NCBI GenBank assembly: GCA_003344405.1
Contig: NOWV01000001.1
Coordinates: forward strand, 806,001-870,000
Length of the DNA stretch: 64,000 nt
Origin: Trichoplax sp. H2
Taxonomy: Eukaryota
Direction of reading: 5' to 3'
This document shows, in pieces, positions 3,801 through 64,000 of this stretch. The translations under genes and the position numbers were made by a program. Position 1 is the stretch's first letter. Each line of letters opens with the position of its first letter. The notes under the pieces were generated by a model. That model had not been told where the DNA came from. It ran no database searches and saw only the letters and a list, made by a program, of their open reading frames with translations.

Positions 3801-6653
3801 TCAGCATCATTCAACTAGTCAATTACTCAAATCGGTACTATTTATTTATTTATTTATGAATAATCCCTAATACACAGGACTTACATCTTTCACTTAATAA
3901 ACAAATTATGCGATATAAATCTGTTATTGTCACACACATACTGTATATTCGAGTCTGTGAACAACGGTACAATGTTTACTTGCACTTCTTAAAATATGTC
4001 GATCGTAAAATATTGATGGTTATTAAGAAGGGCACTATTAATTATTTTGAAATATATCACTAACCAGTATCATCAGATAAACCCACAAATCATCTTGTTC
4101 CATACAAAACAAGAAGTCATGAATTTCGTCTGTGTACTTTGATGATACCTATACTATGTAATCACACTATTAAGGTATTATAACCAACTTATATTTCAGT
4201 TTGATGAGATATCCAGCTGATTTTAACTCGCAAATAGTCATTTTAAAAACAACGTGCTGATTCTAAAATATAATATCGTAATGTTTATTCGTAAAAATTT
4301 TATTCTACCATTCTTCTTCGTATTCATAATTATTGACGTAAACTAAGTATAATATTTTATTTTATACGTCATAATCAACTTTTAGATAGAAAAATAAAAT
4401 ATGTAATAGTTAAAGATCGTTTTAATTTAATTCCATTGCTGTCATCCATGACGGTTATCGAATAAGCCTTCACACAATTCGTTTATTTCGTTCTCTTTGT
4501 ATCTCATGTATTGTAATGAAGGCTTTTAAATGTATTAAGACTTCGTGGGTGAATTAATTCTTTATATATTAATACATACTTTAGGATAATGTATAATTTA
4601 TACGATAAAAATACATAGCAATATGTCTAAGCGACAACAGAATAGTTAGTTCTATTCACGAATAACTCGGTAAACTCTAACGAGACGGCATCATGTCTAA
4701 TTTTCTAAATCATTCTAAATCATTATAAATATTAAAAATGAACCCTACTGCAGCATCGTGATAAGTGATGATAATTTCAACCGATACTTAGTATCTTCCT
4801 TTATAAAGTATTAATCCTTCACCTCTGTCACGCGTCACACCCTCGATATTTCTGATATTTCTAATGAGGAAATATTAATAATTTAATTTATATATTAAAT
4901 TTGAAGCAATCTTATTAATATCTGCTATACTTATCTGCAAGAACTGTTAATTACAGTACAAGTTCTACCAGTCTGTCCGAAAAGATACTTATTATACAAG
5001 GGTTTAATCAGTTACTAGTAACTGTCGAATACTGTTGTGATTTTCTGACTTATTTGATATCTTTCACTATCCTTCGGTTCATTTAGTATACTGGATAAAT
5101 ATTAGAAATTAAATGGCCGATATCTTTATTAATTTAAATTGGATTATTAGTTAGATATTAGGTTAATAACGTATGTTTTCATAAGCTTACAGAGTTACTG
5201 TACTGTATTCGGTAACAATAACCTGATGTACTGTACAGTATAGTACTACTAGTATTAAACGGACTGTAGAAAATTGTCTTACTTTTGCAGTTGTTGATAT
5301 TTACCATTTCCGTTAGCAAGTGGTTGACTTATCTTGAATGCCTTCCTGATAGATTAAGTTCTATAATGATTAATAATTTTGTTTCCATCACCTTCAATTG
5401 TTGCTTTTATTTTGTATAATACGTTTGATGTACTGTACATCACCACACTGAATATTGTAATTTAAAATTGATAAATACTAAATGAATAATGAATTTTATC
5501 TGAAATAAATAGATTTGGGATAATAAAATAACAACATTGTTATGCTCTTTTAATATACCGTAGTCTATTCTTATTAGTAGTTGTTAGGCCAGGTACGCAT
5601 GTAGAATTGTGGGGACGTAAATTGGCGAAGCACGACAATATGGCGATATCGTACAGCCGGTACGGTACTGATTAATTATAAATTAGACAATACCCGTACA
5701 TTTAATTTAAAACAATAATGGGACTTTATTACTACTGCGATTTTAATCATTATAGCGCCCATTTAACGTGCTGATTAATCTATCACATTCTATATACCTA
5801 TTAAATTTATAAATCAAAAATCTATTTAATTTCGTATAAATGCCTTTAGGTACGGTACGTCAATAACATCTAGGCGGTCTACGACCATTATAACACTAGC
5901 TTTCTCTCCGAATACTATATGAACACCTGCTATGCTGCACCAGCATACGTGTAAGCAAAACCCTCTTACCAATTATTCGAAGGGAAATATTTCATTATGA
6001 GACAGTAAATTGATCTCGAAAGTAACGGTATCAGAATTAATGCGTTATGATTACCAATAGTGTTCGAATAAAGGCAACATAGTAATAGTCCAATACACTA
6101 GGACTATGAACGCATGGAATACGATTTTTATCAACTGGTGGTACGATTTAGAATAAAATCCCTTCATTGATTTGAAATATTGGCTACGGTATTTTGGATG
6201 TAATAATATAGGGGTAACCCTATCCCCAACATTAGCAGGGCCTTCACTGAATATATTTACCAAAACGATATAAAATTATAAAACTTAGAAACAGATCTGT
6301 TAAGGCCACATATACAGTATACTAAGGATTCAATGATGCTAACCTAATTATTCGAAAAATTTTATCAGATATCGGTCTTGAACCATTGAAATTGTATCAT
6401 CTGCTGACATGTCGACCGTTACTATCAGAGCTTCCCAAGGTAAATTCCCAACATCATTAAATTATCAATTTAAAATTTCATATCCCTTTTATCTAAACAA
6501 TATTTCATAATATCATTCTTTCCGTTAATAGTCCAGACTAATCCTTTTGCTATCTAACGATTTCCGGATGATTTGAAAACGTCATAAAATCAAATAAAAC
6601 TACAGATAAAAGTCGATTTTATTTGCAGATAGACAATTTACATATTGTAAAAA

Positions 6654-8775
6654 CTAATCGTCCTTGTGGAACTCAAAATGTACGTCCTTGCCAGTTAATC
6701 TTTTATAAGCTGCAACAAATGCTTCTTTCTATTGAGTAAAACATACAGAACAGTATATTATTTACACATTAGTTTTAGAACATACAAAGTAACAGCCAAA
6801 ACTTGGTCTTACCTTATGTTCTAAATTTTGTCGTTCCTTTTCCTCCAAATATCTACAATGCACGTAACAAAAATGTTACTTACTTTACAGTCTTCAAGCA
6901 ATTACACATACCTTATATACTGTTGAAAATATAAAATCACTTACACTTTAATTAGCCTTGATCCGTCAATACGAACTAATGTTCGTTTTCCTATAATTTC
7001 TGAAGGGAATACCACATCCTCCAAGATTGAATCATGCACAGCCGTAAGAGTTCGGCTGGTAAATAAACATATTAACAACTCATTAATTTCTCGCTGTTAA
7101 ACTTGACGTGCGTTGCAAAGGTGCCAAGTGAAGAATTACATAAGAGCAGTTGACTACTCACCTTCTAGGCCTTGGCTGCTTACTTTTCCTTTGCTTTCTC
7201 GTAGGCTTTTTAAGGATACGACGCTATGAGGTAACAAATACATAATAACATAAGCAACTATAATTCACTTAAATCTCCCACTTGATAACATAGCTACATA
7301 ACAATTTACGTCATTAGCTGATGTACTACTATCCAATTATAATTACCTGAGCAACGATTACAACAGAGCTACCAGAGAACTTCTTTTCTAACTCACGAAC
7401 TAAACGAGGCTGTAGGAATTGAAAAAAAATTATGATCATGTTAATAACATCAAGTTGAGAGCAATGATCACTCTAGCCCAGCAATGGCAATACAGCATCT
7501 ATACCGACAATATATACGGGTAATAACTTTATCATTACCTGGATAACTTGAAATGAACGCAACTGAGGAAAAGGTACAGAAATAATGATAGCTTTCTTGT
7601 TTAGCACATCAATTTCCTAAAATAGCATAAATATTGTGTATTAGAACCTATTAATCTTTGCTTTAAGAATAATCTGTATATTATAGTTCAATATATATAT
7701 CTAACCTTAGCTGCAGAAATCTGTAATTCTCGAAGTTGGTTTTTCAAATCGGAATTCAGTTCCAGCTCAAGAATTGCCTAATGTTTACATATGGTTAACA
7801 AGTATTAGGACTGATAGCTTCTGAAAGCTACGTTAAATCGAATAACAGTCCTTCTGTTAGAAACTGGCTAAATCTAACATTATATTACTTTACGCATGAA
7901 ATCATTTCTGATTCGTAGTTAAACGACAGGCTGTGATAATTTACAAATGGATTTGCCTTTTCAAAACGACAAGTCAAGCCTTTCAGTATATTAAGGGAAC
8001 GGTTTGAAAAGATAGCTAAGTTGATACTGTAATATTGTAAAGATTTCATACATTACACATTTAGTTTCGCTAATAGCAAACAACCCTTGAACTAGTACAG
8101 ATTGAATGCCATTACTACGTTACTATTGCAAGTTGCAACATGGGGCACTATACAATAATAAGGTTATGATGAACCCTAAATAGCAATCTAGCAGCCTATT
8201 TATAAGTACAGTACGAAGTAAACCTTACGTTGACTACGATTTACTCATGGTAAGTAGAGATTCATGGCCTAATCAGAGACCATTAGTTCCTGGCCTAATT
8301 CAAAGTCGATAGGCGTAGTGCGGGTCTCAGTCTATCGTTGACTGAATATACAAGGGCAACTATCACTCATTTTTTATTTTGTCTTTAAAGCGATCTATTG
8401 ACGCTATCCATAGCGATCTCCGTTCTCTTAATACTTGAAAATCTGGTTGAGTTGGCATCCTAGCAAACTGCCATCAAATCAATGTAATCTTACTAGCAAA
8501 CATATTCTACTGTAGTAGTCTATCAACATCTTCCTTCTTGATCAGTTTGAGCGGTATGATCGATGATGTAAAAATCGGTGTATTATGACTGTTTCGTTGA
8601 CCTATTTTTATCTCTCTACCTAGCTTTGGATGCTATCCAAGATATAGCACAAAGTTCCTTATAAAATAGAACAGCAAATTAATGTCATAGCCTACAGTAC
8701 CTGAGCAACAGACTGCTCGAACTCATCGGGTTGTTCGTTATTGGGCTTGAGGATTTTGGCTGCGGCTGACAACAT
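6654..8775 (-). CDS. RPS7: 40S ribosomal protein S7 (eS7), 8 coding exons
   Basis: Exons approx. 8775-8701, 7777-7706, 7616-7539, 7409-7347, 7223-7162, 7055-6945, 6852-6813, 6728-6654, all GT-AG. Spliced product [43 protein letters not shown]...[13 protein letters not shown]...[28 protein letters not shown]...[17 protein letters not shown]. Confidence 0.98.
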
Positions 8776-8965
8776 GATGGCGTTGACTACCTATTCATAT
8801 TCAACAAGACGTATATAAGAAAATTTTAAATCATCCAACTACAATCGATGGATAATCTCAAGTGAAATTAATGTTAAAATTATTTTGTAGTAAAAAGGGA
8901 TGGATATGATGCCCCAAATAGCAGTAGGATGAAATTGTTAACGACATGCTAAAAAATGCTCATAC

Positions 8966-9070
8966 CTTTTTCGGATCGCCACAAGGAAAGAGAACGAACG
9001 ACCACAATGCCTTGAGTAAGTAGGAAAAGGTTGGTCACGATTGGCGCAGGCGTATTCCTTGCCGCACGTG
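8966..9070 (-). promoter_or_regulatory. RPS7 TCT/5'TOP start site, short non-coding exon 1, CCAAT box and E-box
   Basis: Minus strand reads TTCTCTTTCCTT (8994-8983), a polypyrimidine initiator typical of ribosomal protein genes, then ...CCGAAAAAG|GTATGA donor at 8965. The acceptor is at 8791-8792, just before the ATG exon. CCAAT at 9040-9044, CACGTG at 9065-9070. Confidence 0.8.
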
Positions 9071-9084
9071 CAAAATTTGACGAG

Positions 9085-10400
9085 TGTACAGTTCAGTACA
9101 TGTACTGTGCACTGTACAGTACTGTACTGTACAGTACTGTACTGTACAGTACTGTACAGTATAGTATTGTGTGGTAATGGTACCGTACAGTACTGTACTA
9201 TATAGATCAAAACGGTTTGAACCGAACCGAACCTTTCTCAGGTCTACTGTACTGTACTGTACACTCAGTACTGTATTGCATTGGTGTTTTGCTGTTTTAC
9301 GTGTACCGTACTGTACAGTACATGATTAGAACAGTACTGTAGTTTCCACCTTTCCGGTACAGAAAGTACAGTACACCAATACTGCGTATAACACAGAACA
9401 GTACTGTACAGTGTACAGTGTATAAGTTACAGTACACATACTGTAGCCCAAGGTATACTGTACAGTGTACAGTACTGTTGTAATATTTTCTGTTGTACAC
9501 TCATGTACAGTACAGTATGTAGAGACGTACTGTACAACTCACAGTCAAGAAAACTATGTTCATTAAAGAAAGACAGAGAGGATAACAAGAGAGAGACGAG
9601 GTATAATCACTACTACCGTTAGCAAGAGATGCGCTCATTTATATAGCGATCTCTGAGCCTGTTGACAGGTATACACTGTAGTGCGTTGTGATACTCTAAT
9701 GATGCTTTAACGCATAATTAGTAGTTTCCGCCTTTCCGGTATAGAAAGTACTGTACACCAATACTGTCTGTAGGACTGTATCTACAGTACTGTACTGAAC
9801 AGTACAGTACTGTAGTCCACGACATACTGTACAGTGTACACTGTAGTGCGTTGTGATACTGTTAATGGTGCTACAAGTACACGTTGTACAGTAGTCTCAA
9901 TACAGTAGGTAGTAAAATATAATTACATGATGCCGGAGACTAATGTACTGTACAGTACTGTACTGTAGTCAACTACATACTGTACAGTACAGTACAGTTT
10001 GTCAGACTTACGGTATATTGTACTGTACACTGTACAGCACAGTACTGTATCGCTCGATTTTCTGTGTATTAAAAGCTGTTAAAATGAAAAATTCTTGCTT
10101 TGAAAGCCATACTGTACAGTTGTACAGCGACTAACTCAAGTGGCCTTTCTTTCTGACATTGTACAGTGTGCACTGTACAGCTCAGTATTGCTCGATTTTT
10201 CTGCCTATTAAAAGCTGTTAAAATGAAATATTCTTGCTTTGAAAGTCATACTGTACAAGTGTACAGTACAGCGACTAACTCAAGTGGCCTTTTCTTTCTG
10301 AATGCTTTACTGTACTGTACTGTACAGTACATACTACGGTACACGAACTACAGAATTGTACCGGTACTGGTACTGTACCTAACGGACTTACAGTACAGTA
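9085..10400. repeat. TACAG/CTGTA palindromic low-complexity array with embedded duplicated modules
   Basis: Dense TACTGTACAGTACTGTAC runs in both orientations. Duplicated modules at about 9340/9721, 9676/9841 and 10047-10156/10186-10301. Confidence 0.9.
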
Positions 10401-29460: not shown

Positions 29461-30048
29461 GCTTTAAAATCATGCATATAAATAGAAAGAAATGCTGCTA
29501 TAGAGACCATCGACGTACATGAACTATAGAGTCTGCAGCACTTTACTTTAGAGATCCGATGTAAATAGTAGCCATTACAATCGATCCTCCAGTATCTGGT
29601 GCCTTACCTTGAATAAATTAGTCGTCGTATTGAAGGATTGCAACTAGATTTTGGTTAATTTCAGCCGTTTATGCCTTAATATACTCAAAATATTCGCTGA
29701 TAGTTAAAGCTAGCAACTTTTACCCCAAGAGTGATGGCCACGTTAGCAGCAAACCAGCAATGATGTTATGCATTACTAAATAGGAAATCTACAGACTACA
29801 GTACAGTAGAGTCCATTAGAATTCTAGGTCATGCACCGAACCATGGACTAACCTATATGAAATTGTCCCTAAAGATGGAGACTGCAGACTCATATCAGAA
29901 TGACTGATTGTAAGCCATACAGTAGCATCGGAGTTGCCAGTGCCGTATAGGGCACACTACTCAACTCAGTATAGTCAAGTGTTGATTTATTTATTATAGG
30001 GAAATAAGTCGTTCCTATTAAGGAGCGCTAGCTAAATGCCTGCAATTA

Positions 30049-44300: not shown

Positions 44301-47300
44301 GCTATTAAGGTGTCGCTTGCATAACTCTGTCGTAAAAAAATTGAGAAATATTGCAACTTATCTACGTATTTGTCGGTATGACAGCAAATTTGTGGAGTTG
44401 CTTAATAGTATTATTATCGTTTACTTGTAATATGACCCGGATTGCTGATCTACATCAGCTCCATTTTATTACCTTTTTGACATATATATCGATATGCTCC
44501 ATTACATCGTCGATCATACCATTTCCAACGACCATTTTTATTCGAGAGAACGATACAAGGTCCTTCATGATTAGGTTCAGTAGCATACCAGTTACTATAA
44601 CTTAGGTTCAGTAGTTGAGTATTATCTGCAATCCATTGGTAATGATCGCGATTATTATCATTATTAGGGTTAAATAACCCAATCCAATAGTCACTCCACC
44701 ATCTTAAGATAGAGGTTACTGCATTTTCTTTGCCTACTGTTTTAATGGAGACTAATTGCGCACTATAAGTATGACATTTATCTATAGCATCGTCATAGCT
44801 CTTAAAGTTATTGTATTTCCTAATACAAGTATTTTCATAAAGTTTCCACCCGCTAGGGCAAGAATAGCTGACAATATCTAAAAAATTTAATATAGAAATA
44901 GGATTAGTTACCGTCAAAAGATGAATATTATTAAAAGATCTGAGTTCGACTTAAGTATAGCACATCATTAGCTCACCTCGAGCTTGAAGAGATAGAATAA
45001 GAGAATTCAACTGGCACAGCTATATAGAATTAAAAATGATTGATTACAAATTTTACCTACTTTTTAATTTTATAATATAGACTAAAAATGAAAATTTAAT
45101 TTTTATCTATAAATTTTTAATGGCCTTGAATATTTTCAAGAATTGATCCCAAGGTATCTAACAATATTCAGTACAGAACTTTGATGTAATATCGCATTGT
45201 AACAAATCAACAAATTGAAAGTATGCCAAGGCATTATTGCCGAAAATGAATTATCAATTTTAAATTCAACTTTTCAATTATACTACTTTGAAGTAGAACA
45301 ATCCCATATTAGTCAGTATTTTCATCACAAAGAAAATATAAAAGTTCCTATTTTAACTCGAGAGAGGGAGATAAGTCTATTATCGAAAAATGCACAACAA
45401 TATGCTCTTTAGATTAAGCTATTTCAATTATAGTGCAATATATATATATATATATATATGGAAAGAGCAAATAGATTTATTATTCTGAAATTTCAGATAT
45501 TTTGTTCTACATTGATGCTGATTTACGTTATACTCTCATATAAGCTAATAATATCACCTTTAAAAATGCTAAAGTATCCGCTGTAACTTAATGAAAAAGG
45601 AATGAGTCAACTCGCAATAAATGTCACAGCATGATATTGGGTAAAGCATACATAAATAAGTTATGATATGTAACAGAAATTACACGAATTCAATAATCGA
45701 GAATACTATATAATTTAATACTCTATATGACCGAGGAAATCAGCATGGTATGATATAAACTCTTAAATTTATCGAGTTTTGATTTAAATTGTACTTATGG
45801 ATGTACAATTTTGTCTAATTAGTCTTTATCCTCATATTAAAAAATATAGGTTAGGTTAAAACTTGATCAAAAAATAGGTTTAACTGCTACCATCATAATA
45901 CACGGATTTGTTTAAATTAGGCACAAATTATAAATATAGTTTATCATTTAAATGAAGCTATTTCAATTGCTTTATAATACTGTATACTTACGATCATATT
46001 AAGTGTCGTGATCTATAAACACTTAATCTAAATATATTACAGATCCTTAGGTGAATATCATATCGTAGCTAAAGTTAAGACGAATAGAAATTTATCTTCT
46101 GAAGCTCCTTTAAAAATTTTATGGTGACCAATTACTAAATTATTTATATAACTTGCGCCATGGATTTGTATTAATTTCATCATAGCACTAAAAATGAGTA
46201 TTACGATTTTGGATAATAACTGGATATTCGAGACAAAATTATACTAATTTTAAGAATCATGTACGTTTCAATAAAATGTAAAATCAATTTTTTATTGAAA
46301 AAAATCAGTCAATAAATGAGTCAATCGATCAAAATTAAGATATCGGCGATAACCAGTCATCCTGCTATAGTAAAGTTTTCAGTTAGCAACGAATTACTCT
46401 ATTTGAATCGACTATCGATCACGAGAGGATTGTACCATACTATATTTTAATTAGTTTCGTAAGTTACTTACCGATATGCTTGTAAAACGAAAAATACAGC
46501 AAACAAATTTAGCTTATTGACATAATAATTTCATTATTGGTAATAACTAATGAGATTATATACTGTAATCTGCATAGGACTACTTAATTTTAGCAATATA
46601 CGAATACAATGAATAAACCAGATGTCGGATTTACATCTGGAATTACATTATTTAAAAAAATATTGATTAATTTACAGGGATATTCCGTAATTAGCATAAC
46701 GACTCACTGTAGGTAATTCATCTGCGCTACAAACTTAATACGGAACAACTAGAATATATAATTTTATTTAAGGGGAAGCTAATCCAAATTTCTAATTATC
46801 AATTCTGGATAATCAATTAGCAGTTGTATAAAAGAATTAAACATTAAATCTTCACGTCGTTGTATTCTATACTAGCTGGAATTAATGTGATTGCCTTGCG
46901 ATCCAATTAAAAAACGATACCCTAATTTTAGTTCCACATAAATTTAGTATACTCATGACTTTAGATCACTTTTTAGGAACATTAATCATTTCACGAGATA
47001 ATATAAGGCGAAAAAAGAAGAAAAAAATTTTAAAATGCTCGAAATCGAATCGGACTGCAAGTACAACAATGTATTTATAAAAAGTATAATAAACCCTATA
47101 TATTCAAACTATGAATAAACGATAAAATTTCCGCACCTATTACTATCGATCACTTGAAGTTCCTTCTTTATGTTTAATTCGTTTTCTATTTCTATTTTTT
47201 AAGGCTATTAAAGGCTACAGCCTTGTTGATAAGTAAAGCTGAATGCTTAGCTTTCGCTCGCAGTATGTATGGATGAAAAATGTAGCGATTTCTACTATCA

Positions 47301-48405: not shown

Positions 48406-51400
48406 CTTTAGCATAAATTTGGATTGGTGCTACTATATCTTGGAATGACGTTGAATCATCAAAATTATGGAAATGGTTCAGTTATAAGTATTTTTAATTT
48501 TGTCGGTAGTTCGCTCTTGATGTGAGAAAAAAATTGCTATGATATTCCTTTAGCATAACTAGCGAACAATGATGTTATCACATTCGATACTATTCACCTT
48601 AAAGCTGTAATGATTAACTAGTATATTACCGTGATTATCGTGACAAGGTGACATAGTAGCATCCAGGTGTTATTCTGATTATTTTGAGTTCCTCATTAAG
48701 TATGTTATTAATAACAATATTTTATTAAGGAGTCACTTGTATGAATTAATTCGTTGATTGATACATTCATAAAACTTCTTTCTAGAATTCCATAGAAAAT
48801 ATCACATTACAAACAGTTAATACTTTGAAGGTAAGATTTTAGACGATTGTCAATCACACTAAAATTTTATTATTTAATTATACGCTAGAAAATCTGCACG
48901 ATGAGATGGTTACAGTAAACAATTGTATTTAGACAACTATTAGATTATATAAAAAGTTATTGAAGAAAGGATAATAAAAAAGTAATTATAGAAGCCTGTA
49001 AACGTAGAATTATTCAAGCATTCAAAGGCAATTATAATTTATATTGATTGTTAAATACTTCAATGTTATTAGTAAACAAAAATTGTAAATAAAATTTGTA
49101 AAGTCTCTTTGTCGTTTTCAATTAATTAATAAAATGAAAGTTATTTTTGGAAAAAGACGATAAGATAAGGCCGGTCATATCCATTATCTAAATTAGATTA
49201 ATTAAAAAGTCAAGAGCTATTACAATGGAAGAGAAGAAAAGCGTCTAGGTGAGTTAATGCATAGATAGTATTAACACCATTTGTTCAATCAGTAAATGAC
49301 TTTATAAAATCAGAATATTATCTATTTATTGAAGTAGAGAATAGCCCTCATATTTGTAATGATATCACTGATTATCTCTAACAATTTATTCATAAATTAA
49401 CTGGATGAATTACTGTTTTATTTTATTTTATAATCAAATTACTTGTAAACACAATTTAGCACTAAATCTGAATAGATTCTATTGATAATTGTAGTACGAG
49501 TATGTAGAGAAAAAGATGTGACGTATATTTTTAACTGGCTAACCATCATTTTCTGGCTTATGAAAAATAATATTCACTTGAGAATAAAGAGCAAATTGTT
49601 GAATCTTGATAAAATATATCTCAATGACTCTATATCAAGGCATCGTCTCAGAAAATAATGATAAAGTATTTTAGAAGGTATTTATGATTAGTTTTCGCTT
49701 TCCTTTCAGATACGTACTAATATTAATACTTCGGCCATTCATATCATCATAATTTAATAATTGCTGATTTTGATTACTGCATAATATATGTAAACGCCGA
49801 TTTCAATTCATCACAAGTCATTCTCGTAAATACTGCATCTATATAATCCTGTAATAAATGCGTCTCACAATAACTAGCTTAGTCAAATTGTATTTTCGAA
49901 AAGGCCTTTATTACAAGGTATTAGAAATAGTAGAGCATTAATTAATTACTACATGAATTTAATCTAAAATCTAAAGTATTCCGAGCTCAAAGCGAAGTGA
50001 AGTCTCTTCTCCTCTGTGAGCTCATCTCTGCAGTTCTTATAAACATTTCATTAAATCCATTTATGACAACTTGATTCATCTACAATCAGATATGAGTCAT
50101 CAAACAAAATACTTTTCTCTAATGGTACATCATTATTTTCTACAATCTAAATTATTCTACTTAAGATGTCCCTACTTTTTTCGAAGGGCATCTTAACAAC
50201 TACAGTGTTTCTAGCTACATAAATCTTGTACCATAATTAGTCAACTAGCTACTATAAGTCATCAACAATTTCTAATATAGTAGTTAGCAATCATCTAATA
50301 TTACCTTCACGGTAATATCTATTCAAAGCAACATAACTATATCAAATATAGCTATCCGTATAATCAAATACGGGTACATCACTACAAGTCCGTATAAGTT
50401 TTGCTTGCATTTTTTGTTTTTAATGGAGTTGATGTGATCCTAGGCTATCTGTGCCGAATGATAATTTAGCTGATTATTCAAGTAATACAATTTTCTTCTT
50501 AAATTTAATCACTTATTTATTGTATTTATAAAATAAAAAACGATGTATCCCAAGCATAAAAGTACTAAATCTCGAATTAATTGTAAGCGTAACGTTTCTA
50601 TCCTTTGATATTTTTCGCAATTATACGAAATTTTCTCTCCTATTATCGCATTAGTACTCTATACAGGCAAGAATAATGCATATTAAGTGTCTTGACGGCA
50701 AGCGAATAGAAACTTTTCAGAATCGCACCTATATTTATTTTATACATACATTTTTGGAAAACTATCGCTTAATTTGAAGGAATTACAGCTACTCACTAGT
50801 TGCTTTGCTAGGACGTAGTTAATTATTCTCTTTGCATGTTATCATTAGAAATTTTGACAAAATTTACATATATTAGCATTACTATACCACTTTTTTAGAC
50901 AGAGCAATATTGTAACTTTGTCATCTGATTTTCAGCAAGTTTCGAAATGCTTTAAATCGGCATCAAGTTATCGGAAATTTAGATTGTTTAAAGGCAACAG
51001 TTGCTAATGCATTACTTCTTTTTCCTCATAGTAATAGATTGATAGCCAATTAATTAATTAAATGTATTCAATTTGTTGACGTCATAACTTACCTCATAAG
51101 CTTAAACTCTTCTAAATCCTTATCAGAATTAAAAATATTGTGCTGGAGCCAGTAGTATTGTATTTATTTATTGTGATCTACTCATTGGTATAGTCAATCA
51201 ACCTAATGTTAAATGAGTATTGATGATGAAGCAACTAATATTGCTCCTTATACTGTCTACAACCGGGCATGGCTACTATCAGCACTTTTCGCCCTCTATT
51301 CGCTGCTGGAGGATCTAGACAGCAATAAATGTAATCTGTGATGATGCTCATTGAGTCTATAAATGTAAACTATTACGATAATTACGAACACTAAGTCAAT

Positions 51401-51907: not shown

Positions 51908-54900
51908 TTAGTTATCCTTTTTTTCTGAAACATCTTCTGAACCTTTACCTTGATCTTCATCTTTATACCTAGGGAAATATCAATAGATAACTTATTATCA
52001 TTATTTCTTGCCATATTGGAAAAAACTTAGCCGACATAGGTATTAGCAGATCATTTAACTTTTATATACATACGCAAATAGTTCCTTCAATTGGCCTTTT
52101 ACTAGTGCCGTTAAAATAGTTGAACCAATACAGGCTGGCACCAAATATAATAATGCAGGCTACAATTTTGTATAAAATTTGTTTGTTAAAATGTACATTA
52201 AGTATAGCTTCAAGTAAAATAAGCATCATCATAAAATTATGCGAGAAGTCGCCACAAACAGTGAAAGTTACCTGTGCTGCTTTAAATAGTAGAAGAACTG
52301 CGACTGTAACAATTAGACCAATAATGTAAGCCACGAGTCCATTATAAAAATAAGCCTTACTGCCCTTATTAGAACTAAATTATTGCAGTAAAAATTAGTA
52401 CCAAAGCTTTAGAGATAGTTTATCTTAAGCTTAATATAGTATCTAACCTCAAGTCGAAACGCAATAGCAATGCAATATAAATTCCTATTTATCAAAGACG
52501 TCATTCGGACAAAGAGTTAGTATGATTTCAATTCAATTTATGGTTTGATAAGTTTAATTGTAATTGAATAACATAATGAAATAGAGACCTCTTTACTGAG
52601 TTTAATTTACATCAATTAAAAGACATGATACTTAAAATTATACTTTACCTGGTATGACAATATCACCTAAACCTAGCATTGCATAATTTGTAGAATTGAT
52701 TCCCTTTTCAATAATATCTACGGGAAAGATTACTATTGCGAACGATTAAAACAAGAGAATATCATTAGAATATCAATGTTGTGTTAAAGATACCATAATG
52801 ATACTGCTTCATGTCAGTGGTTACAAAGGTGCACCTACAAGCGGTATAAGGTATTATTAGCCTTTTTAATCAGTAAGACCTACACTTTATAGGAGCTTCA
52901 AAGGAGGTCGCCACAGTAACCATAACATCAGTACCGAAAACCTATTGATATTAAAATTTAATTCATGTATAAAATATAACATTATCCTGGAAGGTTTAAT
53001 ACATTTAATAAAAATGTTTCTTTAAGTATCTCTTTTATGATGAGACAGATTGTGAATGATTATTAATAGATATCGATATTATAGCTAACCCAAAAGATGT
53101 CATAGAAGAAGAGACCACCAAGTAAAATACAACCCGTTTGAACACTGTAAAAAATATTAACTAGATTATTTACTGTTGTTAATTATCCACTATCTAGAGA
53201 TACTATCTGGCAAGATCAACGTTACCTGTTCAACTGCAAGAGTTCAACCCCAGTCGACGCAAATGCTAGTCCTAAAATGTTGTTAGCGATCCAATGCTAT
53301 TCGATATGAATAAAAATTTTTGAGTTCTTCTTAAAGACAGCAATAAAAATTTCTGTACATAAAGTTGTTTTGATGTACTGTATAATGGACTGCAATTTCT
53401 CGAGATGCTTCGATAACTATTTTATTACAGTATATGAGTAGTATGATATACGGTATCGAGTGTGCACCTAATGCGACTAGTAATGCATACATTTATCATT
53501 AAAACCATCATTTTGAACCCTATTCTATTAGGACTATACATAGCATGTAACATTTATTTCAGTATTTATTATATCTACCTTTTTAATAAAATACCAAACA
53601 TTAAAGGCAGCGGATAAAGCCAAGGCCATCAATGTAATGTAATCGAATTCGATATCGTTTAAGGCTAAATAATTAAAATAACATTCAAGAACAAATTCTA
53701 ATAAGTAACTATTTTAAGCTATTATGTTAACTTGTCAAAAATTGCTATTATTTTAAAGATACTTCAAATTTGCCTAGATGTTATTGTAGCATCTTTGGTA
53801 ATTAAGTAAGCTTTAATAATCGAGATGATCGAAAAACTAACTCTCTTTCTTTTCGTCTTTCTTTTGAATAAACAGAAATTGGTAGCAAGTTTTAGGTAAT
53901 ATACCTATAAAGATTGGTCGGATGACTGGGCTAAAAAAATGCAAAAGTATTTTATTGACAGTTGAACGTGATCAAAATCGAGCTAATACTGACTGCTAAT
54001 TTCTGAAATTATTTATGACACTATTTACTACATAAAAGCCTTCGCGGTAACTTTGAGTCACCAATACTTACTCCAAAATGGACGTTAAACAACCGGTACC
54101 AAGAAAGAAGAAGTAGCCAGCTAAGAGTAAGTTAAGATACTCTTTGGATAAGAGCTGCAAAAAAATAAAATACATATTTTATTTTTATACGCGTTCTGTA
54201 TATTATGAAAGATAAAGCGATTGAATTTTGTAAGTCACAAAGGCGTAACTTTCTAGAGAGCGATTAATCCACTGAAAGTGCAATCGTCAGTTAATAAATC
54301 AAATTTTTTTATCGTTACAGCAACATTTATTTATTATTACCTTTATGACTATGTATAGACTAAATAGCGCGCCACTGGCGACTAATGGAAACATGAGGGC
54401 GTCTTTAGAATTCATAGTCTCCACCTTTCAAAAAGATTGATTGCAAATAGAAGTACGTAACTTGTTATAACGATAAGACACGCACATATAATATTATTAA
54501 TAATTAAACGTGATAGGAGGATTTCAATTTTTAAATAAATATAACATTACAACTTTATGTTGTGAGTAAAGAATAAGTTAGCTTATTATTGCAAGATACG
54601 GTAGAATAAGTGGTGCAGTTTCAAGTCGTTACATTCGAGATAATCAGTTTTGTTGGAATCAAGGCATGATATGCGCGTATAATACAGTATATTATACGTC
54701 TACAGTAGTACTGTATGATGCGTTTATTATTTTCAAGCAGACTTGTAGTGTAAATAAACCTAAAAAGCTTACAAGTACAGTATAGTATACCGGATGGTGA
54801 CTATAATTATAAGAGTCGGCTTAGGTTTGATGTATTATCACTGTTCTATAGTACACACATAAATATTGGTGAAGTAATAAAATTAGTATACACACATTGT

Positions 54901-56523
54901 TTGATGAATGACGCAAAATCTTTCCATCAAAGCTAAGAAAATGTTGTCCCCGTACGCCTGTACACAAACGTAGTTACATGCATACTTTTAGCTTATTTGT
55001 ACGATAGTCATTGCTTGTTGTCAATTATGAGTGAAGATCGTGCTTAGAATCATATTGATGTACGGTATTAATTATTTCAATCGATATAGCAGCAGCTACG
55101 GGCACGTACGTCTAAATTTGAAATACGTCATTGTGTACTGGGGGAGATTACGTTTTAGACCAAAGTTATGTAGACTATCATCGATCAAGGATAATATAGT
55201 ATACAAGAAAAACTATTTAAATTGTCCAACGCACCCAATTCAAAGTCTGGTAATTTGATCTAAGAGCTTTTTACTGTGCGAAAGTAACTTGAATTAATCT
55301 CGATTATGGGACACCTTTGAATTGCATCACTACGAGTATTCATAGTACAATAAGCGGAAATTCATGTCTGTATAATACGGATACAGTTGTTACAGGCATA
55401 GCTGAGGATTAACGGTGATTTTGGCCACTGTTCCAAAATCTTTAGTGATTTATATACAGTCAGCGATAAAGCGATATGGAATAAAAATGTAGTTAGAGAG
55501 CTTGCTAATTGCAAGCGAAGACAAATGTTACGTTAGCATCGTAAATGAGAATCTTCAGTAAATTTGTGTATTGGAGAGTACGTGAATGCAAAAGTTGAAG
55601 GGTTCTAGTATTATACTGTAACATTTTACTCATTTTGACATTAACTTAGAATCAGTTTGCAAATTTTATTGATTAACAATTGGTGGTTTGCTGAAAATTG
55701 TTCAAGGGTAAACGTTAAATTATGCAAACTCATTTCTACTTTCATTTTAATATCGTTGCGTAATAATGCTTTCCCGATTAAACATGGTTTGCTTTCGCTA
55801 TGTAGACTACGTCTATTTATAGCTTTACGGCGTCATCGTAGGAAAAATTCAGACTGTATCAACCCTATACAAAGAATAAACTAATAGACATAAAGTGGAT
55901 ATCATGATGGTACAATATTTTTAACAATACTAGGAATGGAAGGATTAGTAAATTGAGATAGACAAGTTATGGCCGTATAGTCCATTTTATTTTCAAGATT
56001 GACGAGAACTACAAGCGATATCCAGTTCTACCCTCACGTCCATCCACCAAGTATATTACAGTACTCATTCATTGCTATAGGATGATACAGTAGTATTACA
56101 TTTATAGACTATAATGTAGTGTAGTGTTCATTTCATTGAATGAAGCCCTTTCAATGCAAGACGACTTCATTACCCTAGCCAAAGCGTTAATGACTATTCG
56201 CCGCTATGACTTGGTGTAATTATTTTTCGATCAATCATTTCAACTCTTAATCAACATGTAAAATGGATACGCTTTGAAAAGATTGGTTTATTGGTGATTG
56301 CATTTTAAAGCGTATAAATGCAATGACAGCTTACCTTGGATTTTTGCGTACGATAAAAAGACCGAAAAGAGCCATAACAAATAGGCAAGATAGACATGAT
56401 AATTAAGCCACTATAAGCTACGGCTAAGCCAGTAGGGGTTCCTTTAAGTGATCTTGTAGTCTTATTACTTTGCTCGGTTGCATTTTCAATGATAGCAGAA
56501 ACAGTACTGTTGATTTCCTCCAT
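51908..56523 (-). CDS. HM13: Signal peptide peptidase (GxGD intramembrane aspartyl protease), about 13 coding exons
   Basis: Exon 1 MEEINST...GLAVAYSGLIIMSILPICYGSFRS. Later exons give KDALMFPLVASGALFSLY, HWIANNILGLAF, catalytic GLFFYDIFW|VFGTDVMVTVA and AMLGLGDIVIPG, and Q|PALLYLVP. C-terminus is KKDN* (KKxx ER-retrieval), which fits SPP rather than SPPL2/3. Confidence 0.97.
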
Positions 56524-56689
56524 ATTTACGCTTCAAAGTTAATTTTTTTCGAGCAATCGAGAATAACTGCGTTGTCAAGATCGAACCAGAATTGCTCAAG
56601 TGAGGCAATAGTAACGACAACTCGATGGACGTCAGCTATTGTACTGATAGCATTAGAACCAGACTTGATGTCCACTTCTGCGTGTAGGT

Positions 56690-57530
56690 ACAGAAGTACA
56701 GTACTGTACAATACAGTACAGTACTGTAGAGTAGTACTGTATGATCAGTATGTACTGTACAGTACAGTACAGTACAGTACCAGAATGTACAGTATTATGT
56801 GCAGTGTACAGTAGTAAGTACTGTACGCTACGGTAGTACTGTACAGTATGTTGCTACGATACCAGGTACTGTAGCATGCCTGTACACTGTACAGTGTACT
56901 GTACAGTACAGTACTGTACAGGCATGCTCAGTAGGGTGCAAATTCTACAGTATACAGTACAGTACAGTACTATCATTTCAATCTCCGGGAGATACAGTAC
57001 TGTACTGTACTGTACTGTACTGTACTGTACCCGTTGACCATTGAATGTGCTAGGCACTGTACAGAAGTACTGTACATACTGTACTGCGGTATGATCTGTG
57101 TATAGTACAACTAGTACTAATGTACAGTACAGTACTGTACAGTATACAGTAGTACAGTACAGCAGTACTGTATGTTGCTACGATACCAGATACTGTAGCA
57201 TGCCTGTACAAAACTGTACAGGCATGCTCAGTAGGTGCAAATTCTACAGTGTACAGTAGATATTAAACCATTGACTGTGCTAGGTACAGAAGTACTGTAC
57301 TGTACTGTACTGTACTGTACAGTATGATCTGTACAATACAGTAGTACAGTACAGTACTGTACTGTACTGTATGTTGCTACGACACCAGGTACCGTAGCAT
57401 GCCATTACACTGTACTGTACTGTACTGTACACTGTACAGTGCTCATTGACCATTGACTGCGCTACTGATTCATGTTACGGGACTACAGACTGTACTGTTA
57501 TACTGTACACTGTACAGTATACTGTAGACT
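56690..57530. repeat. TACAG/CTGTA palindromic array with higher-order repeat, filling the HM13/ARFRP1 bidirectional promoter
   Basis: Runs of (TACTG)n and (TACAG)n. Module TATGTTGCTACGA(T/C)ACCAG.TAC.GTAGCATGCC occurs three times (about 56847, 57171, 57370). CCATTGA.TG.GCTA also occurs three times. Confidence 0.9.
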
Positions 57531-57675
57531 AAAGTATCAACTAGCCCATGATGCCGTGCGAGCGTGCATATCCCACTACGTCACCGTTGTGCTTGTGTTG
57601 CTGAAGTAGACTCGTTTAATACATTCGCTAATCCGTAGGATGGAAGCTATCCCAAAATAACCTCCAGAAGTAATC

Positions 57676-59900
57676 ATGTATACCTTACTCTATGGATTAT
57701 GGAAGTATATGTTTCAGAAAGATGAATACTACGTTCTTATTCTTGGATTAGATAATGCTGGTAAAACGGTAAGGATACGATGATGACAAGATCCATTTCT
57801 TGGCGACACAATTTTACTATTTCTTTTTTATCCATGGTTTATATTGAATCGCTCTCAGTGCTGCTGAATCATTCGGACTGCTTCTACTAGTAGTACGACT
57901 AAAAATTGAAAGATTCAAAGTCTCTTGATTACTCTATCATCATTCAATTTTTATAATAAAAGCCTTGATGATTTAATTCCAACCATTCAGTGTTCAACTT
58001 AACCTGATAAACATGATAGTATGCGCTAAATTGCGCTCAAACCATAGAATGAGAGTAATGTTCACTTTGCCGGTACATGACGATAAGCTAGCTAATGGAC
58101 GATGGATAAGTATTGGATTAATGAAACTTTTAGACGAGTTAACATAGACACCTTGACAACATGGTATCGTCTTAATAGACAATCTTTACGCTTTTCTCGC
58201 ATTTTCTTCGGTGTATCGTATGTAAATCCAATTCCCGTATTAGATTAAACAAATAATAGTATACATTTCATCCATTTTCTCTTCTATCAATACAAACTCA
58301 TGTATCGTATCGTCGATTCCACAACATCTGTAAAGAAGCCTCTACTTCCTATACTAAATCAGTAAATCCCCCAATGTCCATGTGTATAACTAACCTATTT
58401 CGTTTACAAATAAAGTAGAATTAGTATCTTACTCGTACAAAATAGCACATCCTATGGAACATTGGATCCTTTTTGCCGTTATATGAAGAAAACATAGGGG
58501 AAATAAACAGCATGATAATATGGATAGAGGAGTTAGTGACTTGGAGATTATAACGCAATATGGAAAATCCGCAGTACTGTACAATACTCAGCCATGATAG
58601 GACTATGCTTATAATCCTTGATGGATGGTAATCTATCCTAGAGTTTAAAGGACGCCTTATTAATTAAAAGTACTAAAATTTGTCTGATTAATTTTGAAAT
58701 TCCATTACTTATAGACATTTCTAGAAAGGACGAAAAGTAAATTTTCTCGAAATTATCAATCTTTATCCGCGGATAAGATTTCACCGACCGTTGGACTAAA
58801 TAGTAAGAAGTAGAACGTAAACCTTCTACAACCTCAAGTTCTATCATTATTACGATAATGATGATAATTGCCAAACTAGAAATTAAACTCCATAACTCAT
58901 AATGTCACACAATTGAAGTACTGCAATCGATGCCACAGTTTAAATAAAAATTTTTCTTTCTACAGTCGGAAGAATAGATTTAGGATCAATTAGATTACGC
59001 TTTTGGGATCTTGGTGGCCAGAAGGACCTTTTAACTTTATGGGACAAGGTAAAACATTATACCTTTCTACGTCTGTTTTTCTCAAAAGAGAATATTGCAT
59101 TTCTAACAAACCTTATGAGCACTAGAATCTTATGAGATTTGACGGTGTATCTGCTTCTTATCTTCAAATTTTTGCATACATATGCATTATTGGATACTAG
59201 TATTACTCGGAAGCCCATGCAGTCATATTTATGATTGATTCAACGGATAAAGAACGTTTGTCTATGTCTAAAGAAGCATTCGGTGAGAAGTTAATAAATG
59301 CATCATATCGGTACACTAAGATGCGGCTAATAATATAATATATTCTCAAATGGACGTATTTTCTAACCAGCAATTGACCTTCTATTTCCATTCGTAGATG
59401 AAATGATGGTACACCCAGCATTAGATCGTGTACCTCTACTTGTTTTAGCTAATAAGCAGGATTTAGAGGTATTATCGATATCTTAGCTTTGTAAAGTGTA
59501 CCATTAAAAATGATATGGTTGTATGATAACAGTTATGATACATGGTACTTGACAAAACACATCATTTTGTTCTATATCTTTCTTCATTATTTTTAGTCCG
59601 CTATGGCGTTGGATGAAATAAAAACCATTTTTAATGAGAGTTTACAAAATCTTGGCAAGAGAGATTTTAAGATTCAGCCAATTTCCGCTCTAAAAAGGTA
59701 ATTCTCGTTTAGAATTGGATATTAAATTTGATTGCTTAGACGTGACATATTTTCTTTTTTAAATCCGAGTATACTTTACTATTTCTTAATGGAAATTTTT
59801 ATACTTTAGTCAAGGCATTCATGAGAGTATCGACTGGCTAGTTTACTGTGCAAAGAAAAATAGTGACAGGCCACCTAGCACTCGTGAAATTACATCATAA
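57676..59900 (+). CDS. ARFRP1: ADP-ribosylation factor-related protein 1, 7 coding exons
   Basis: MYTLLYGLWKYMFQKDEYYVLILGLDNAGKT (57676-57768) | TFLERTK...PTVGLNI (58715-58802) | FWDLGGQ (58966-59048) | YYSEAHAVIFMIDSTD (59201-59282) | LANKQD (59398-59468) | 59597-59697 | ...RPPSTREITS* (59810-59900). The N-terminus is diagnostic. Confidence 0.97.
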
Positions 59901-62718
59901 AATTGCTATGGTATCGTATCTGGCTACTAGACAAATTTATCAATTTTCTTTCTACAATTTTAACTTATGTAACTTCAACAGTAAGAAATCAATATCTAGA
60001 TGTAATTCAGAATTACCAAATTTATACGACGATAAGTTATCTAGCACTCATCACAACTAGCGGAGTGATCAATTAAAGTAAAATTAATGCATAAAGAGTC
60101 TAGACCAAGATGCTCCAGCCCAAGTTGTGCTTACGGGCAGACTTATTCCTGATTGATTTGTTGAATAATAAGAAAATATACAGCAGAATGAAAGAAATAT
60201 ATATATTCTAGGTGAATCTCTTAAGTACCCGTTGCTACATTAGACTTGCAGTTTTATTGCCATCAAGATAACAATAACAATTTGCATATTATCTACTTCT
60301 CCCATGTACAATATCTAGTAGTGCTATATTTAGGTATTTATCTACCGTAAAAAACAAATTCTTCAACACCAAATAAATACTGTATCATATTGTGCTTTAC
60401 TATAGTTAGATTGAATTTAAGATTTAAATTATGTTCATAAATATAGCTCATATACAAGCAGCACATTTAAAAGATTAAAAGAAATGTATAATTCATTCTT
60501 AATACTTTTGCTATTGACCATTCTGGATTATTTAATTACTGCATACCGATGTACAGATTTGTTATCCCTAACATCACATCCTGCGATCGATGATGCAAAC
60601 TTGTATTTGCTTGATAGTATATATTACTAATCAACGTTTTTATCTATCTTGTCGACGTTTAAAGCAATATGTCGATGTGATCATGTGGTTTTAAAGCGCT
60701 AATTAAGATGATAATCAAACCATCAAATTAATAAAAATGTCCAAATGCCTGATATAACCTGTCAAGTCAAAATAGGCTTTAAATCTCTTTAAATACTTGC
60801 TTAAATTTTAGCTAAAGAGATAGGAATATCTTTCACTTACCGTAGCTTTTTCACGCTTTGATTACTAGTTCGATAATATAATTAATTAGTACTACAACTC
60901 ACCTAGCATACTGTGTGATATGCAAAAGATATATTGTATCTGACTGTTAATTGCAGTCTACAGAAAAAAATTAAACTAGTTCAAGTCGTGAAAATTTTAC
61001 AAGGTTACGGTAGAAAGCTTACATGGAATGAAAGTATAGCCTGCGTGTTTCTTATACTGTATTATTGGTTTATTTACTTAGTGTAACTTTACGTATAGGC
61101 ACATCTAAAATATTAGCATACGTGTATTGCATGTATTTACGAGATTTCACTTTTTCATGCTTTTAAATATTTCTGAATTGAAGTCATTTAGCATGTAGCA
61201 AATTGTTGCTTTACGGATACAATGTGCACGTATACTGTACGAAAGTATAATTAGTGTCAGAATATAGTTAGTATATCATATTATGTGCTGTATCAAATTC
61301 TTTATTATACAGTAGAAACTCATTAGAAAGAGCATATTATATACTGTAAGTAGCCTATATTCATTTAGGTAATACCCGTACACTAACTAATTAGTCTCAT
61401 TAGATGCAGATCTGTGTCTTTATCCTCGCTTTTAATCGTAAGTAACAATCTCTCGATAGTAATTACATTTTTCATTTCGAGTACTACTCGTATGTGTGCG
61501 TAACCAAACGATATTAATGTTTTTAGATTAATATCATACCGGCACAAGTACATCTGTTCCTGTTTACATTCGGTATCCCGGGACACTGAACTAAGTATAT
61601 CATAACATTTCTTGTCATCTTTAGGATAAATAGTGCATATAGTTTTTTCTCGTAAATATCACGGGTACATTAATTACCACTGTAAATACGGTACATTATA
61701 TGCCAATAATCATGGTCTCCTGCTATTACGTTATTTCTCACACGAACGAGTACTTTATGCAAACCAATATAATTTTCATAATATTTATGACAAATTCTAT
61801 TACTTCATAATGCATTAATTAGATTTCACAATTAAACAAAACTATAGCGAATGATTTTTACTGTTACGTAATACATCAACAAATCTACAATAATTGTTCA
61901 TAAATTGAGATAACAATTTATCGATACTTCCTTAATGTTTATAGTAATTTAGCGTAAACTGACAACATTATAATACGGCGTCCGCCTGCAAGGTAACAGC
62001 TATGATACTAGTACCATTTAAATTATCTGTACTTATTGTCAGATGTAGATGAGAATAGAGCCTAGTTTAACTTGCAATAGATGCCTTTTAGTATAAAATA
62101 GTACTTGCATTAAAGTAGGTCTTTCTATGAACACTGTGATACTCTAAATGTAGGAGATTAAAAGACCTCTAAAGACAATAATAAAATGCACTCTAGCCTT
62201 CATTGTTAAATCAATCAACTAGGTCGATCAACTAGGATGTAATAGTTTCTATAGTAACCATCATTTGCATACTATCAATAAGAATGACGATAATATAATA
62301 TCGTCTATGAAGCAGTTCCAGCTAATTGCACTCTTCTACGGATTGTTTATACAGATTGGTCAGCATTCGATCCAATTCGGCAATAGTAACCCCTTGTATA
62401 GGAGTATAGGATGATATTGGAGTAATGTTTAGATTTGAGAATTACAGTTAATCATAAATAACGGTAGCTTTAGCATATTCTACGATCGTTCTTAATTAAG
62501 TCATATATAAAAATGAAGAAATGGTACTAAGAAAGCATTGAAAGTTTTCCACTTCATCATTCTTAATAATCATGATAAGTAAGCTACGATGAATCTAGTA
62601 TATTTAATACTTAAAAGTTAGATCTCGATGATTTCCTATTTACTACAATAGTAAATCCTTTACTAAAAGTTAATATTGTCATGCGTTTTTTGATGCACGA
62701 TTATACGAAGGTGAGAAA

Positions 62719-64000
62719 ATGGATGTCAATGAAGATAATTTGGTGAGTAAAATGCTATCCAGAACTGAGAGTCGGAATTTTTATGCCAATATGTACATTT
62801 CAGTTTACACTGCAATTATCATTACTGTTATGTGATCTATTATTGCACATTTAGTTATAAATAAGTTGAAAAGTAGATGAAAATTAACACCAATATCAAA
62901 ATCTTAAGTAATCTTACAGTTTATACCATTTTATTTACAACGAATTTCAACGTTTTTTTTTGTCTAGTAGCTTAACTGCTATTCTCAGATTGTCGATAAG
63001 TCCAGCTAGTATCCATTCTTTATTACTAACTAATCCCTGTTTTTGGATTGTCTACTATGTAGTTAAGATAAATTGAAAAGTTTGATAAAATTTAGCAGCA
63101 ATTCTGTATACTATAATAGTCGTAGTATTCCATTCATAGCAAATTTCACTCTTAGTAATCTAATTTTGACCTACATGTTGTCGATTATCATGACTAATAT
63201 GCCATCAGCTATTTCGATATAATCGTTACTATTGGCTTGATTATCGTATAGTCTAGATTTCTGAAAACATCGATGTTATGATCTCGAGCAATCCTATATC
63301 ATACATAAATTTTGGTTATACTTTCCGTTCTTTCGGTCGTGCAGCCCAATTTTAACTCTTAAATTGCAGATAGATACGTCTGGTATATAATCAGTTATCA
63401 CCTCCTAGTGTAAGATATGTCTGGAAATTTACACTCAATTAAAGAGTTTATTTTTTATCACTGTCGTACAATATTGCTAAACTATTCCACCCTTTTAAAC
63501 TGAAAACTTTCAAGTAAAATTAATATAGTAAATGCAGACAACTTCATCCTCACGTTTTAGATAGGAATAGTTTATTTAGCTGTAGAATTATAGTATTACT
63601 TTAACTATAAAGACTGAAATTTTATATTAAATACTAGATAATAAATCATTCATTCATAAATTGAACATTTTATATAGGAGACTAAGTTAATGTACGACCA
63701 ACTGCTGGTAGAATTTCTGAATGAATATTTGGCTTCACCGGTAATAATAGATAAAATCAAACGATGACTTTTCTATATTCTTAATTCCTCTTCATAAGAG
63801 AATTTTTGATAGAATTTTTACCACTTTATACGTTGCATTAGACTTTTGGAGAGCGTATAACTTACAACTACAATACGGGCAACTTTGAAGGTCTACGAGA
63901 TGAATTAATTGATCAGAAACAATTCATTAGCAGTAAACGAACAATTTTTATACCACCAGGATCACCCGATCCAAACTCATGTACTTCCATTCATGTTTAC
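62719..64000 (+). CDS. Possible 5' part of an unidentified gene running off the window
   Basis: ATG micro-exon 62719-62742 (MDVNEDNL|GTGAGT) is phase-compatible with an acceptor at 63841. That acceptor opens 53 stop-free codons (TFGERITYNYNTGNFEGLRDELIDQKQF...) to the edge. No family recognised. Confidence 0.35.

Follow-up and report, generated by a model that had tools for sequence, protein, structure and literature searches.

Composite TACAG/CTGTA arrays beside gene starts in Trichoplax sp. H2 belong to the known (ACAGT)n repeat class

In the genome of Trichoplax sp. H2, an array of interleaved TACAG and CTGTA pentamers fills the space between the start codons of two divergent genes, which raises the question of whether such an array is a promoter element, the trace of a mobile element or a microsatellite that grew without any role. 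The window in which it was noticed (i.e., the whole stretch of DNA analysed here) is 64,000 nucleotides long and corresponds to positions 806,001 to 870,000 of contig NOWV01000001.1 (assembly GCA_003344405.1); all coordinates below are those of the window. The original prediction, made from the sequence of this window, was that this array and a second one upstream of RPS7 represent a repeat-based promoter system of housekeeping genes, analogous to a CpG island and acting as a protein-binding platform, a nucleosome or cruciform element, or a chromatin contact anchor.

Both dense arrays proved to be real. TACAG and CTGTA together occur 30, 24, 21 and 10 times in the successive 500-bp intervals from 9001 to 11000, and 32 and 45 times in those from 56501 to 57500, as against 0 to 7 times per 500 bp elsewhere in the window. 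The richest 850 bp hold 81 of these words, far above the counts in 200 mononucleotide shuffles, in which the maximum per 850 bp averaged 6.5 and reached 9 at most. Pentamer words make up 383 of the 843 bases (45%) of array 2 (56688..57530) and 347 of the 1316 bases (26%) of array 1 (9085..10400), which is of the same kind but looser and lies upstream of RPS7, compared with 1053 of the 61841 bases (1.7%) outside both; neither array was assigned to a strand. Perfect (TACAG)n or (CTGTA)n runs of at least 10 bp number 40 in the window, 20 in each orientation, and 33 of them fall inside the arrays (17 in array 1 and 16 in array 2), as do all 17 of the runs longer than 12 bp, the longest being 34 bp (56997-57030). 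The run listing also brought out a minor cluster, likewise without strand, of three short CTGTA runs (10-12 bp) at 5196..5438. Both edges of array 2 were confirmed by a public DNA run that carries another species label (run X4), the contigs of which cover 55733-56874 and 57431-64000.

The most fitting description of the arrays is (GTACW)n, i.e., a ladder in which the palindromic word GTAC recurs every 5 bp and is separated from the next by a single A or T. Inside the arrays, 74 of 151 successive GTAC pairs are spaced at exactly 5 bp (39 in array 2 and 35 in array 1), compared with 7 of 215 outside, and the base between the 5-bp-spaced cores is A in 29 cases, T in 43, C in 2 and G in none. Since the choice of A or T at this one position sets whether a unit reads as TACAG or as CTGTA, the two orientations interleave in register and palindromes arise automatically; GTACA on the opposite strand is GTACT, with the register unchanged, which explains both the interleaving and the palindromes. 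The absence of G and near absence of C at the spacer base suggest that the switches of orientation are not ordinary point mutations, and point instead to a strand-symmetric process or to constraint. Adjacent spacer bases in array 2 were the same in 19 cases and different in 6, where a fraction of 0.53 would be expected to be the same. The corresponding counts in array 1, which includes a 15-bp tandem repeat, were 5 and 10. The clustering in the former and the tandem repeat in the latter are signs of slippage and small duplications.

The palindromes follow this ladder. The arrays contain 30 of the 75 perfect palindromes of at least 12 bp in the window, with 16 falling in array 1 and 14 in array 2; one of the latter, at 57343-57368, is 26 bp long, and the 14-mer GTACAGTACTGTAC occurs 9 times against an expectation of 0.01. 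The palindrome TGTACAGTACTGTACA, which had been put forward as an example from array 2, is present once in the window, at 9143-9158 in array 1, and is absent from array 2, where equivalents are found. As a single strand, the array folds with -215 kcal/mol, compared with -144 +/- 5.8 kcal/mol for 20 shuffles (z = -12.3); this strong folding results from the inverted pentamers and is uninformative on cruciform extrusion in chromatin. With respect to orientation, the half of array 2 on the side of the HM13-like gene is mostly TACAG and the half on the side of the Arf-family gene mostly CTGTA. A rule by which gene direction dictates pentamer orientation was rejected, as array 1 is oriented relative to RPS7 in the way opposite to the pattern of array 2.

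Between the pentamer runs lie non-pentamer spacers, which repeat only locally; none is common to both arrays or shared with the rest of the window. This difference in spacers bears out the earlier view that the two arrays did not arise by copying of a single inserted element. In array 2, alignment (repeat family D7) revealed a local higher-order unit in three plus-strand copies of 130-320 bp, which differ mostly in the length of their pentamer runs: copy A (56836..57075), in which the spacers include a GCATGCC...GGCATGC hairpin frame that encloses pentamers, copy B (57160..57300) with shorter pentamer runs, and copy C (57359..57480), which has partly diverged. Array 1 has local duplications of its own (10052-10106 matches 10190-10245, 9672-9706 matches 9837-9872 and 10128-10156 matches 10272-10301). 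In addition, comparison of the window with the DNA of the other species label (X4) revealed 5-bp insertions or deletions at 56804 and 56836.

As had been stated, two divergent genes flank array 2, which takes up the space between them, and both start codons can be read in the sequence. On the minus strand, the first coding exon of a signal-peptide-peptidase (HM13-like) gene occupies 56333..56523, with its ATG at 56523. RNA contigs (X16 and X17) join 54422 to 56333 and then show 11 more CT..AC joints down to 51964, which resolves 12 introns of the gene, and its exons give a Peptidase_A22B match at 52065-52379. On the plus strand, the first coding exon of an Arf-family GTPase gene, which has Arf-family matches, extends over 57676..57767 from a readable ATG to a GT..AG joint (57767 to 58714; X16 and X17). 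This gene is presumably ARFRP1, as in the original prediction, the domain matches giving the Arf family only. One array edge lies 165 bp from the ATG of the HM13-like gene and the other 146 bp from that of the Arf-family gene, with non-repeat DNA in between: a proximal promoter flank of 164 bp on the HM13 side (56524..56687, minus strand; GC 0.41, CpG observed/expected 1.32), and 145 bp on the other side, comprising the proximal flank and the probable 5' leader of the Arf-family gene (57531..57675, plus strand; GC 0.455, CpG observed/expected 1.07). A contig of a further run (X19) spans 57425-57746; as that run is of unknown kind and also covers the introns adjoining the array, its profile was not used as evidence.

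The remaining genes were recognised by domain scans. The first covered 142 of the 171 stop-to-stop frames of at least 55 aa, after 24 frames inside the arrays, one across an N gap and four overlapping the long frame 18220-19272 had been dropped; the second was restricted to four gene-poor stretches and took in all of their 257 frames of 30-54 aa, giving 399 scanned frames altogether. The coding exons of RPS7 (6944..7616, minus strand), which came to light in the second scan, match Ribosomal_S7e at 6944-7096 (E 1.7e-16), 7332-7472 and 7476-7616, which supports the claim that array 1 is upstream of this gene. The claimed distance of about 90 bp depends on a putative leader exon with a pyrimidine-rich start (8960..9000, minus strand), which was read from the sequence and would place the start of RPS7 near 8990. 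On the far side of array 1, the domain scan found no recognisable gene. Two adhesion GPCR genes (7tm_2 and Lectin_C; about 13.4-20.4 kb and 33.4-45 kb, minus strand), the first with a further 7tm_2 exon at 13379-13537 from the short-frame scan, and POFUT1 (O-FucT; 25.4-26.9 kb, minus strand) are preceded by no array, with 0-3 pentamers per 500 bp on their 5' sides, in agreement with the original prediction. Three of the recognised genes in the window bear an array and four are free of one, and on its own the window proves little.

A wider view was provided by public sequence runs under two species labels that contain this stretch, most of the DNA runs totalling about 100 million letters of contigs. 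In the DNA run X4, 3209 contigs matched a 20-kb stretch, and the summed depth was 7594 and 2475 in the two array bins, compared with about 30-38 in the majority of the remaining bins. These contigs match only as far as the edges of pure pentamer runs (e.g., 56758-56780, 56896-56918 and 57418-57440), and the loose ends beyond give a consensus of low agreement, i.e., many different flanks. As the matches stop at the run edges and continue into diverse sequence, the runs are dispersed at very many loci and the spacers are not. In the RNA-Seq library X16, 167 pentamer-bearing contigs were matched, 97 of them only partly; these may include DNA carry-over, and contigs of this kind cannot show transcription starts. 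A perfect 23-bp (TACAG)n run was found in at least 113 metagenome contigs. Among those listed, none shows similarity to the window beyond the repeat itself at E <= 1e-10 when low-complexity sequence is filtered, so that they look like microsatellites of other organisms and provide no extra placozoan loci. A phage collection gave no match.

A search of the literature for a prior description, which the original prediction had called for, was successful. In Trichoplax adhaerens, pentanucleotides account for 7233 of 11697 microsatellites, with ACAGT making up 78% of the pentanucleotides (Wang et al. 2010, PMC2871265), i.e., about 5,600 loci by our own arithmetic on these figures, and to the knowledge of those authors this was the first report of a eukaryotic genome with pentanucleotides as its most abundant microsatellite type. 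More than half of the ACAGT microsatellites (54%) are found no further than 1 kb upstream of a gene, and the share rises to 85% when the limit is set at 5 kb; the linked genes are enriched in translation (58 genes, mostly for ribosomal proteins) and protein modification, and the repeat was suggested to be a transcription-factor site (PMC2871265). The likeness to our arrays is close: ACAGT is TACAG rotated by one base, the position upstream of genes is the same, and the link to ribosomal-protein genes recurs at RPS7. The window also agrees with the published class in its particulars, since the 17 perfect ACAGT-type runs longer than 12 bp all lie in the arrays, both arrays are within 1 kb upstream of a gene (165 and 146 bp at array 2, about 90 bp from the inferred start at array 1), and the X4 depth in the array bins indicates a high copy number in the genome. 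The arrays therefore are members of the known (ACAGT)n gene-upstream class. They are a rediscovery of a repeat in print since 2010, and as its association with genes has been published for as long, they do not constitute a new promoter system. The proposed promoter mark is thus upheld as far as the association with promoters of broadly expressed genes is concerned, which agrees with the genome-wide data (PMC2871265), but not as a novelty. The two descriptions differ in scale, as Wang et al. scored only perfect runs longer than 12 bp and the arrays here are composites on the kilobase scale; the relevant passages of their paper are silent on the interleaved orientations, the GTAC core and the local higher-order duplications described above (PMC2871265).

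Membership in this class leaves the question of what the arrays do, and the account that we hold to be probable, on balance, is that the region is an (ACAGT)n instance that has grown by slippage and duplication and serves as a multivalent platform in housekeeping promoters. According to this account, the arrays would change as whole units slip and as blocks of 130-320 bp are duplicated locally in tandem, and each would form the central part of a housekeeping promoter region, some 90-165 bp from start codons or an inferred start site, with the promoter region of array 2 being common to the two divergent genes. The array would probably be a landing platform with many sites for a putative factor reading GTAC or ACWGT, and such a factor would prevent the region from closing and would either insulate it or keep it in contact with other promoters. 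DNA that is kinkable, self-complementary and periodic at 5 bp may also itself affect nucleosomes by disfavouring a positioned one. Counting for the platform, the arrays adjoin the 5' ends of RPS7, a signal peptide peptidase gene and an Arf GTPase gene and are absent at POFUT1 and the GPCRs. Counting against it, there is no orientation rule, and POFUT1, which is also broadly needed, has no array; moreover, microsatellites can build up in open promoter DNA without any function.

Several low-complexity sequence classes, including CpG islands, GAGA/(GA)n and poly(dA:dT), mark or open broadly active promoters, and a CpG island is recognised by a CpG observed/expected ratio above about 0.6 together with high GC. 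The (ACAGT)n arrays may work in a similar way, but their composition differs from those classes and is depleted in CpG: the observed/expected ratio inside the two arrays is 0.31 and 0.62 at a GC content of 0.39-0.41 (31.6% for the window as a whole), which is not that of a CpG island, and only the short proximal flanks reach 1.07-1.32. Hence, the analogy with CpG islands drawn in the original prediction can hold for function only and fails for composition. The established classes are read by proteins such as GAF, CLAMP and the CXXC proteins; within the parts of the literature examined, no report of a binding factor for the repeat was found.

The idea of a contact anchor has a counterpart in print. 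A model trained on Micro-C data of T. adhaerens, which were taken from Kim et al. 2025 under GEO accession GSE260572 (PMC12817080), finds a repeating ACAGT motif de novo (Chimaera, NAR 2026, PMC12817080), and according to its authors all motifs found were confirmed by in silico mutagenesis (PMC12817080). The same repeat is thereby tied, computationally, to three-dimensional genome patterns; the tie is a neural-network attribution at the level of the genome, and the relevant passage does not specify whether the pattern is insulation, a fountain or a loop (PMC12817080). In placozoans, the promoters of about one third of the genes, those with housekeeping roles, are open and rich in H3K4me3 and come together by looping into hubs; a conserved motif marks the loop anchors and is found as well in the terminal inverted repeats (TIRs) of elements annotated as "Mutator" by EDTA v2.1.0 (Kim et al. 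2025, Nature, PMC12221973). These GP1 hubs resemble the arrays in that housekeeping promoters of placozoans bear a repeated, lineage-specific motif, which in their case is conserved across four species (PMC12221973). The motif linked to transposable elements is, however, given at second hand as repeating ACGG and not ACAGT (PMC12817080), and the arrays show no transposon features. TACAG, CTGTA and GTAC are all absent from the text of Kim et al., and TACAG and CTGTA from three supplements, the motif being printed only in figures (PMC12221973). Within the arrays, ACGGT/ACCGT is weakly enriched (2.75 per kb, compared with 1.1 per kb elsewhere). Since this enrichment is only weak, the arrays cannot be tied to the published promoter hubs.

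The strongest alternative to a promoter platform is that the arrays are a neutral by-product without any role, produced by slippage, template switching at GTAC and local duplication, and tolerated or even favoured in nucleosome-free promoter DNA. Much of the anatomy would suit such growth: insertions and deletions between lineages are the size of one unit, the main difference among the copies of the local unit is how long their pentamer runs are, the spacers are not common to both arrays, the orientation of the pentamers follows no rule, and the correlation of neighbouring spacer bases in array 2 (19 same, 6 different) is a signature of slippage. The occurrence of the perfect 23-bp (TACAG)n run in metagenome contigs of unrelated organisms also fits. 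Nevertheless, the prevalence of a single pentamer (78%), its position within 1 kb upstream of genes (54%) and the functional enrichment of the linked genes would be hard to obtain from mutation bias alone (PMC2871265), and the contact-map model finds the ACAGT repeats informative (PMC12817080). In addition, G or C stands at the spacer base in only 2 of 74 cases although transitions should be common, which speaks for constraint or for a generating process that is symmetric between the strands. Weighing both sides, we regard purely neutral growth as rather unlikely.

A second alternative concerns how the unit itself arose. The canonical excision footprint of Sleeping Beauty is TACAGTA or TACTGTA, i.e., TA + CWG + TA (PMC6943129); one unit of the arrays together with the TA beside it has exactly this sequence, down to the ambiguity between A and T at the centre. 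The units might accordingly be iterated footprints of Tc1/Sleeping-Beauty-type elements at TA, with CWGTA added in each cycle and slippage following. When the arrays are cut into TA-delimited tokens, CAG or CTG accounts for 115 of 301, compared with 67 of 7345 elsewhere. The next informative tokens, CAGTG (6) and CACTG (7), are presumably similar to Tc1-type termini. A footprint origin would also account for the restriction of the spacer base to A or T and for the mixing of orientations in register. The A/T spacer, however, is also the trivial outcome of a single motif occurring in both orientations, and the spacer bases of array 2 are clustered and not independent (19 same, 6 different), as the central bases of separate footprints should be. 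Known footprints are single scars, whereas the arrays string tens of units together and have clustered spacer bases, so that amplification would be needed as well. Trichoplax has few transposable elements, apparently inactive, with only 11 Tc1/mariner copies (PMC2871265), and no active Tc1 element is reported for it in the relevant passages of that work (PMC2871265). A single literature search brought up no precedent for microsatellites built from footprints. Iterated excision scars are thus an improbable source of the arrays.

Most improbable of the three is that the arrays are TIRs or decayed copies of the "Mutator" DNA transposons at GP1 promoters: such elements do occur at these promoters with the loop-anchor motif in their TIRs (PMC12221973), and inverted pentamer blocks do give 48 long imperfect inverted-repeat pairs with arms of up to 49 nt, but the 399 scanned frames contain no transposase or other mobile-element domain, X4 contigs from elsewhere match the pure pentamer runs only and not the spacers, the spacers repeat only locally, leaving no combination of TIR and spacer common to copies, and the transposon-borne motif has been assigned to repeating ACGG (PMC12817080).

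The correspondence between the array unit and the Tc1/Sleeping Beauty excision footprint TAC(A/T)GTA is what is new here, and we offer it, from sequence comparison, as a lead. In its furthest form, which we consider a long shot, the arrays would be a fossil record of promoter-targeted transposition, in which TA-CWG-TA scars, left by repeated insertion and excision at TA sites in open promoter DNA and then extended by slippage at thousands of housekeeping promoters, were later co-opted by a GTAC-reading factor to open or tether these promoters; the printed "ACGG" repeat could then be a GTAC-cored pentamer with a G/C spacer.

To return to the reading that we favour, of (ACAGT)n arrays as probable platforms in housekeeping promoters, the window reveals no new phenomenon; what it adds is a compact description of a known one, consisting of a GTAC core, a 5-bp ladder, an A/T spacer, and growth by slippage and local duplication. 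In placozoans, a pentamer repeat specific to the lineage appears to take the place of CpG islands as the mark of a large class of broadly expressed promoters. If it is true that a GTAC-reading factor exists, that factor would be a candidate organiser of promoter hubs in early-branching animals.

At least 113 metagenome contigs (G + C contents of 0.35-0.53) contain perfect (TACAG)n runs of at least 23 bp, and the bare pentamer microsatellite is thus not unique to the genome represented in the window. Arrays in one orientation form the majority among the metagenome contigs listed, none of which showed similarity to the window outside of the repeat. Around the arrays of the window itself, by-eye reading picked out the word ACGTCA (a CRE-like half-site) in both proximal flanks of the array lying between the HM13-like and Arf-family genes (56524-56687 and 57531-57675), as well as the words CACGTG and CCAAT in the RPS7 flank.

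A second dispersed repeat, different in kind from the pentamer arrays, occupies 49337-50670. The summed contig depth of X4, a DNA run labelled as another species, reached 458 and 1716 in two bins of this segment, compared to approximately 30 in the adjoining bins, and contigs from RNA runs likewise accumulate over it. A search of the reading frames of at least 55 aa in this repeat detected no Pfam domain. Two non-coding tandem repeats were also observed, one at 30045-30621 (two copies of 286 bp, 96% identity) and the other at 39966-40298 (2.4 copies of 144 bp, 80% identity). In addition, a 20-N gap (11773-11792) is flanked by direct duplications, with 11130-11385 identical (100%) to 11793-12048 and 11413-11599 matching 12211-12397 at 99% identity, and these look like an artefact of assembly or scaffolding rather than biology.

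Concentrating on the genes, two adhesion GPCR paralogues lie on the minus strand at 13.4-20.4 kb and 33.4-45 kb, each including an exon that encodes a C-type lectin domain (19857-20351 in the first and 44453-44950 in the second, both minus strand), and the first also contains a coding tandem repeat (18650-19030, five copies of 75 bp). A minus-strand exon of a multi-pass membrane protein (3-902, 300 aa) has relatives that carry PF25987; the nearest relative other than the sequence itself shares 80% identity with it and comes solely from an assembled public run.

The heptamer TACGGTA/TACCGTA, in which a GTAC-type core is combined with a G/C spacer, occurs 26 times in the window, compared to 6.25 ± 2.4 (maximum 13) in 100 dinucleotide-preserving shuffles. 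The copies are dispersed across the window (e.g., 56829 and 57390), with small clusters at 5.5-6.2 kb (including 5556, 5661, 5851 and 6185) and 60.3-61.7 kb (60343-61687). A "repeating ACGG" motif is named in PMC12817080, which models the Micro-C maps of T. adhaerens, and the heptamer might be related to this motif.
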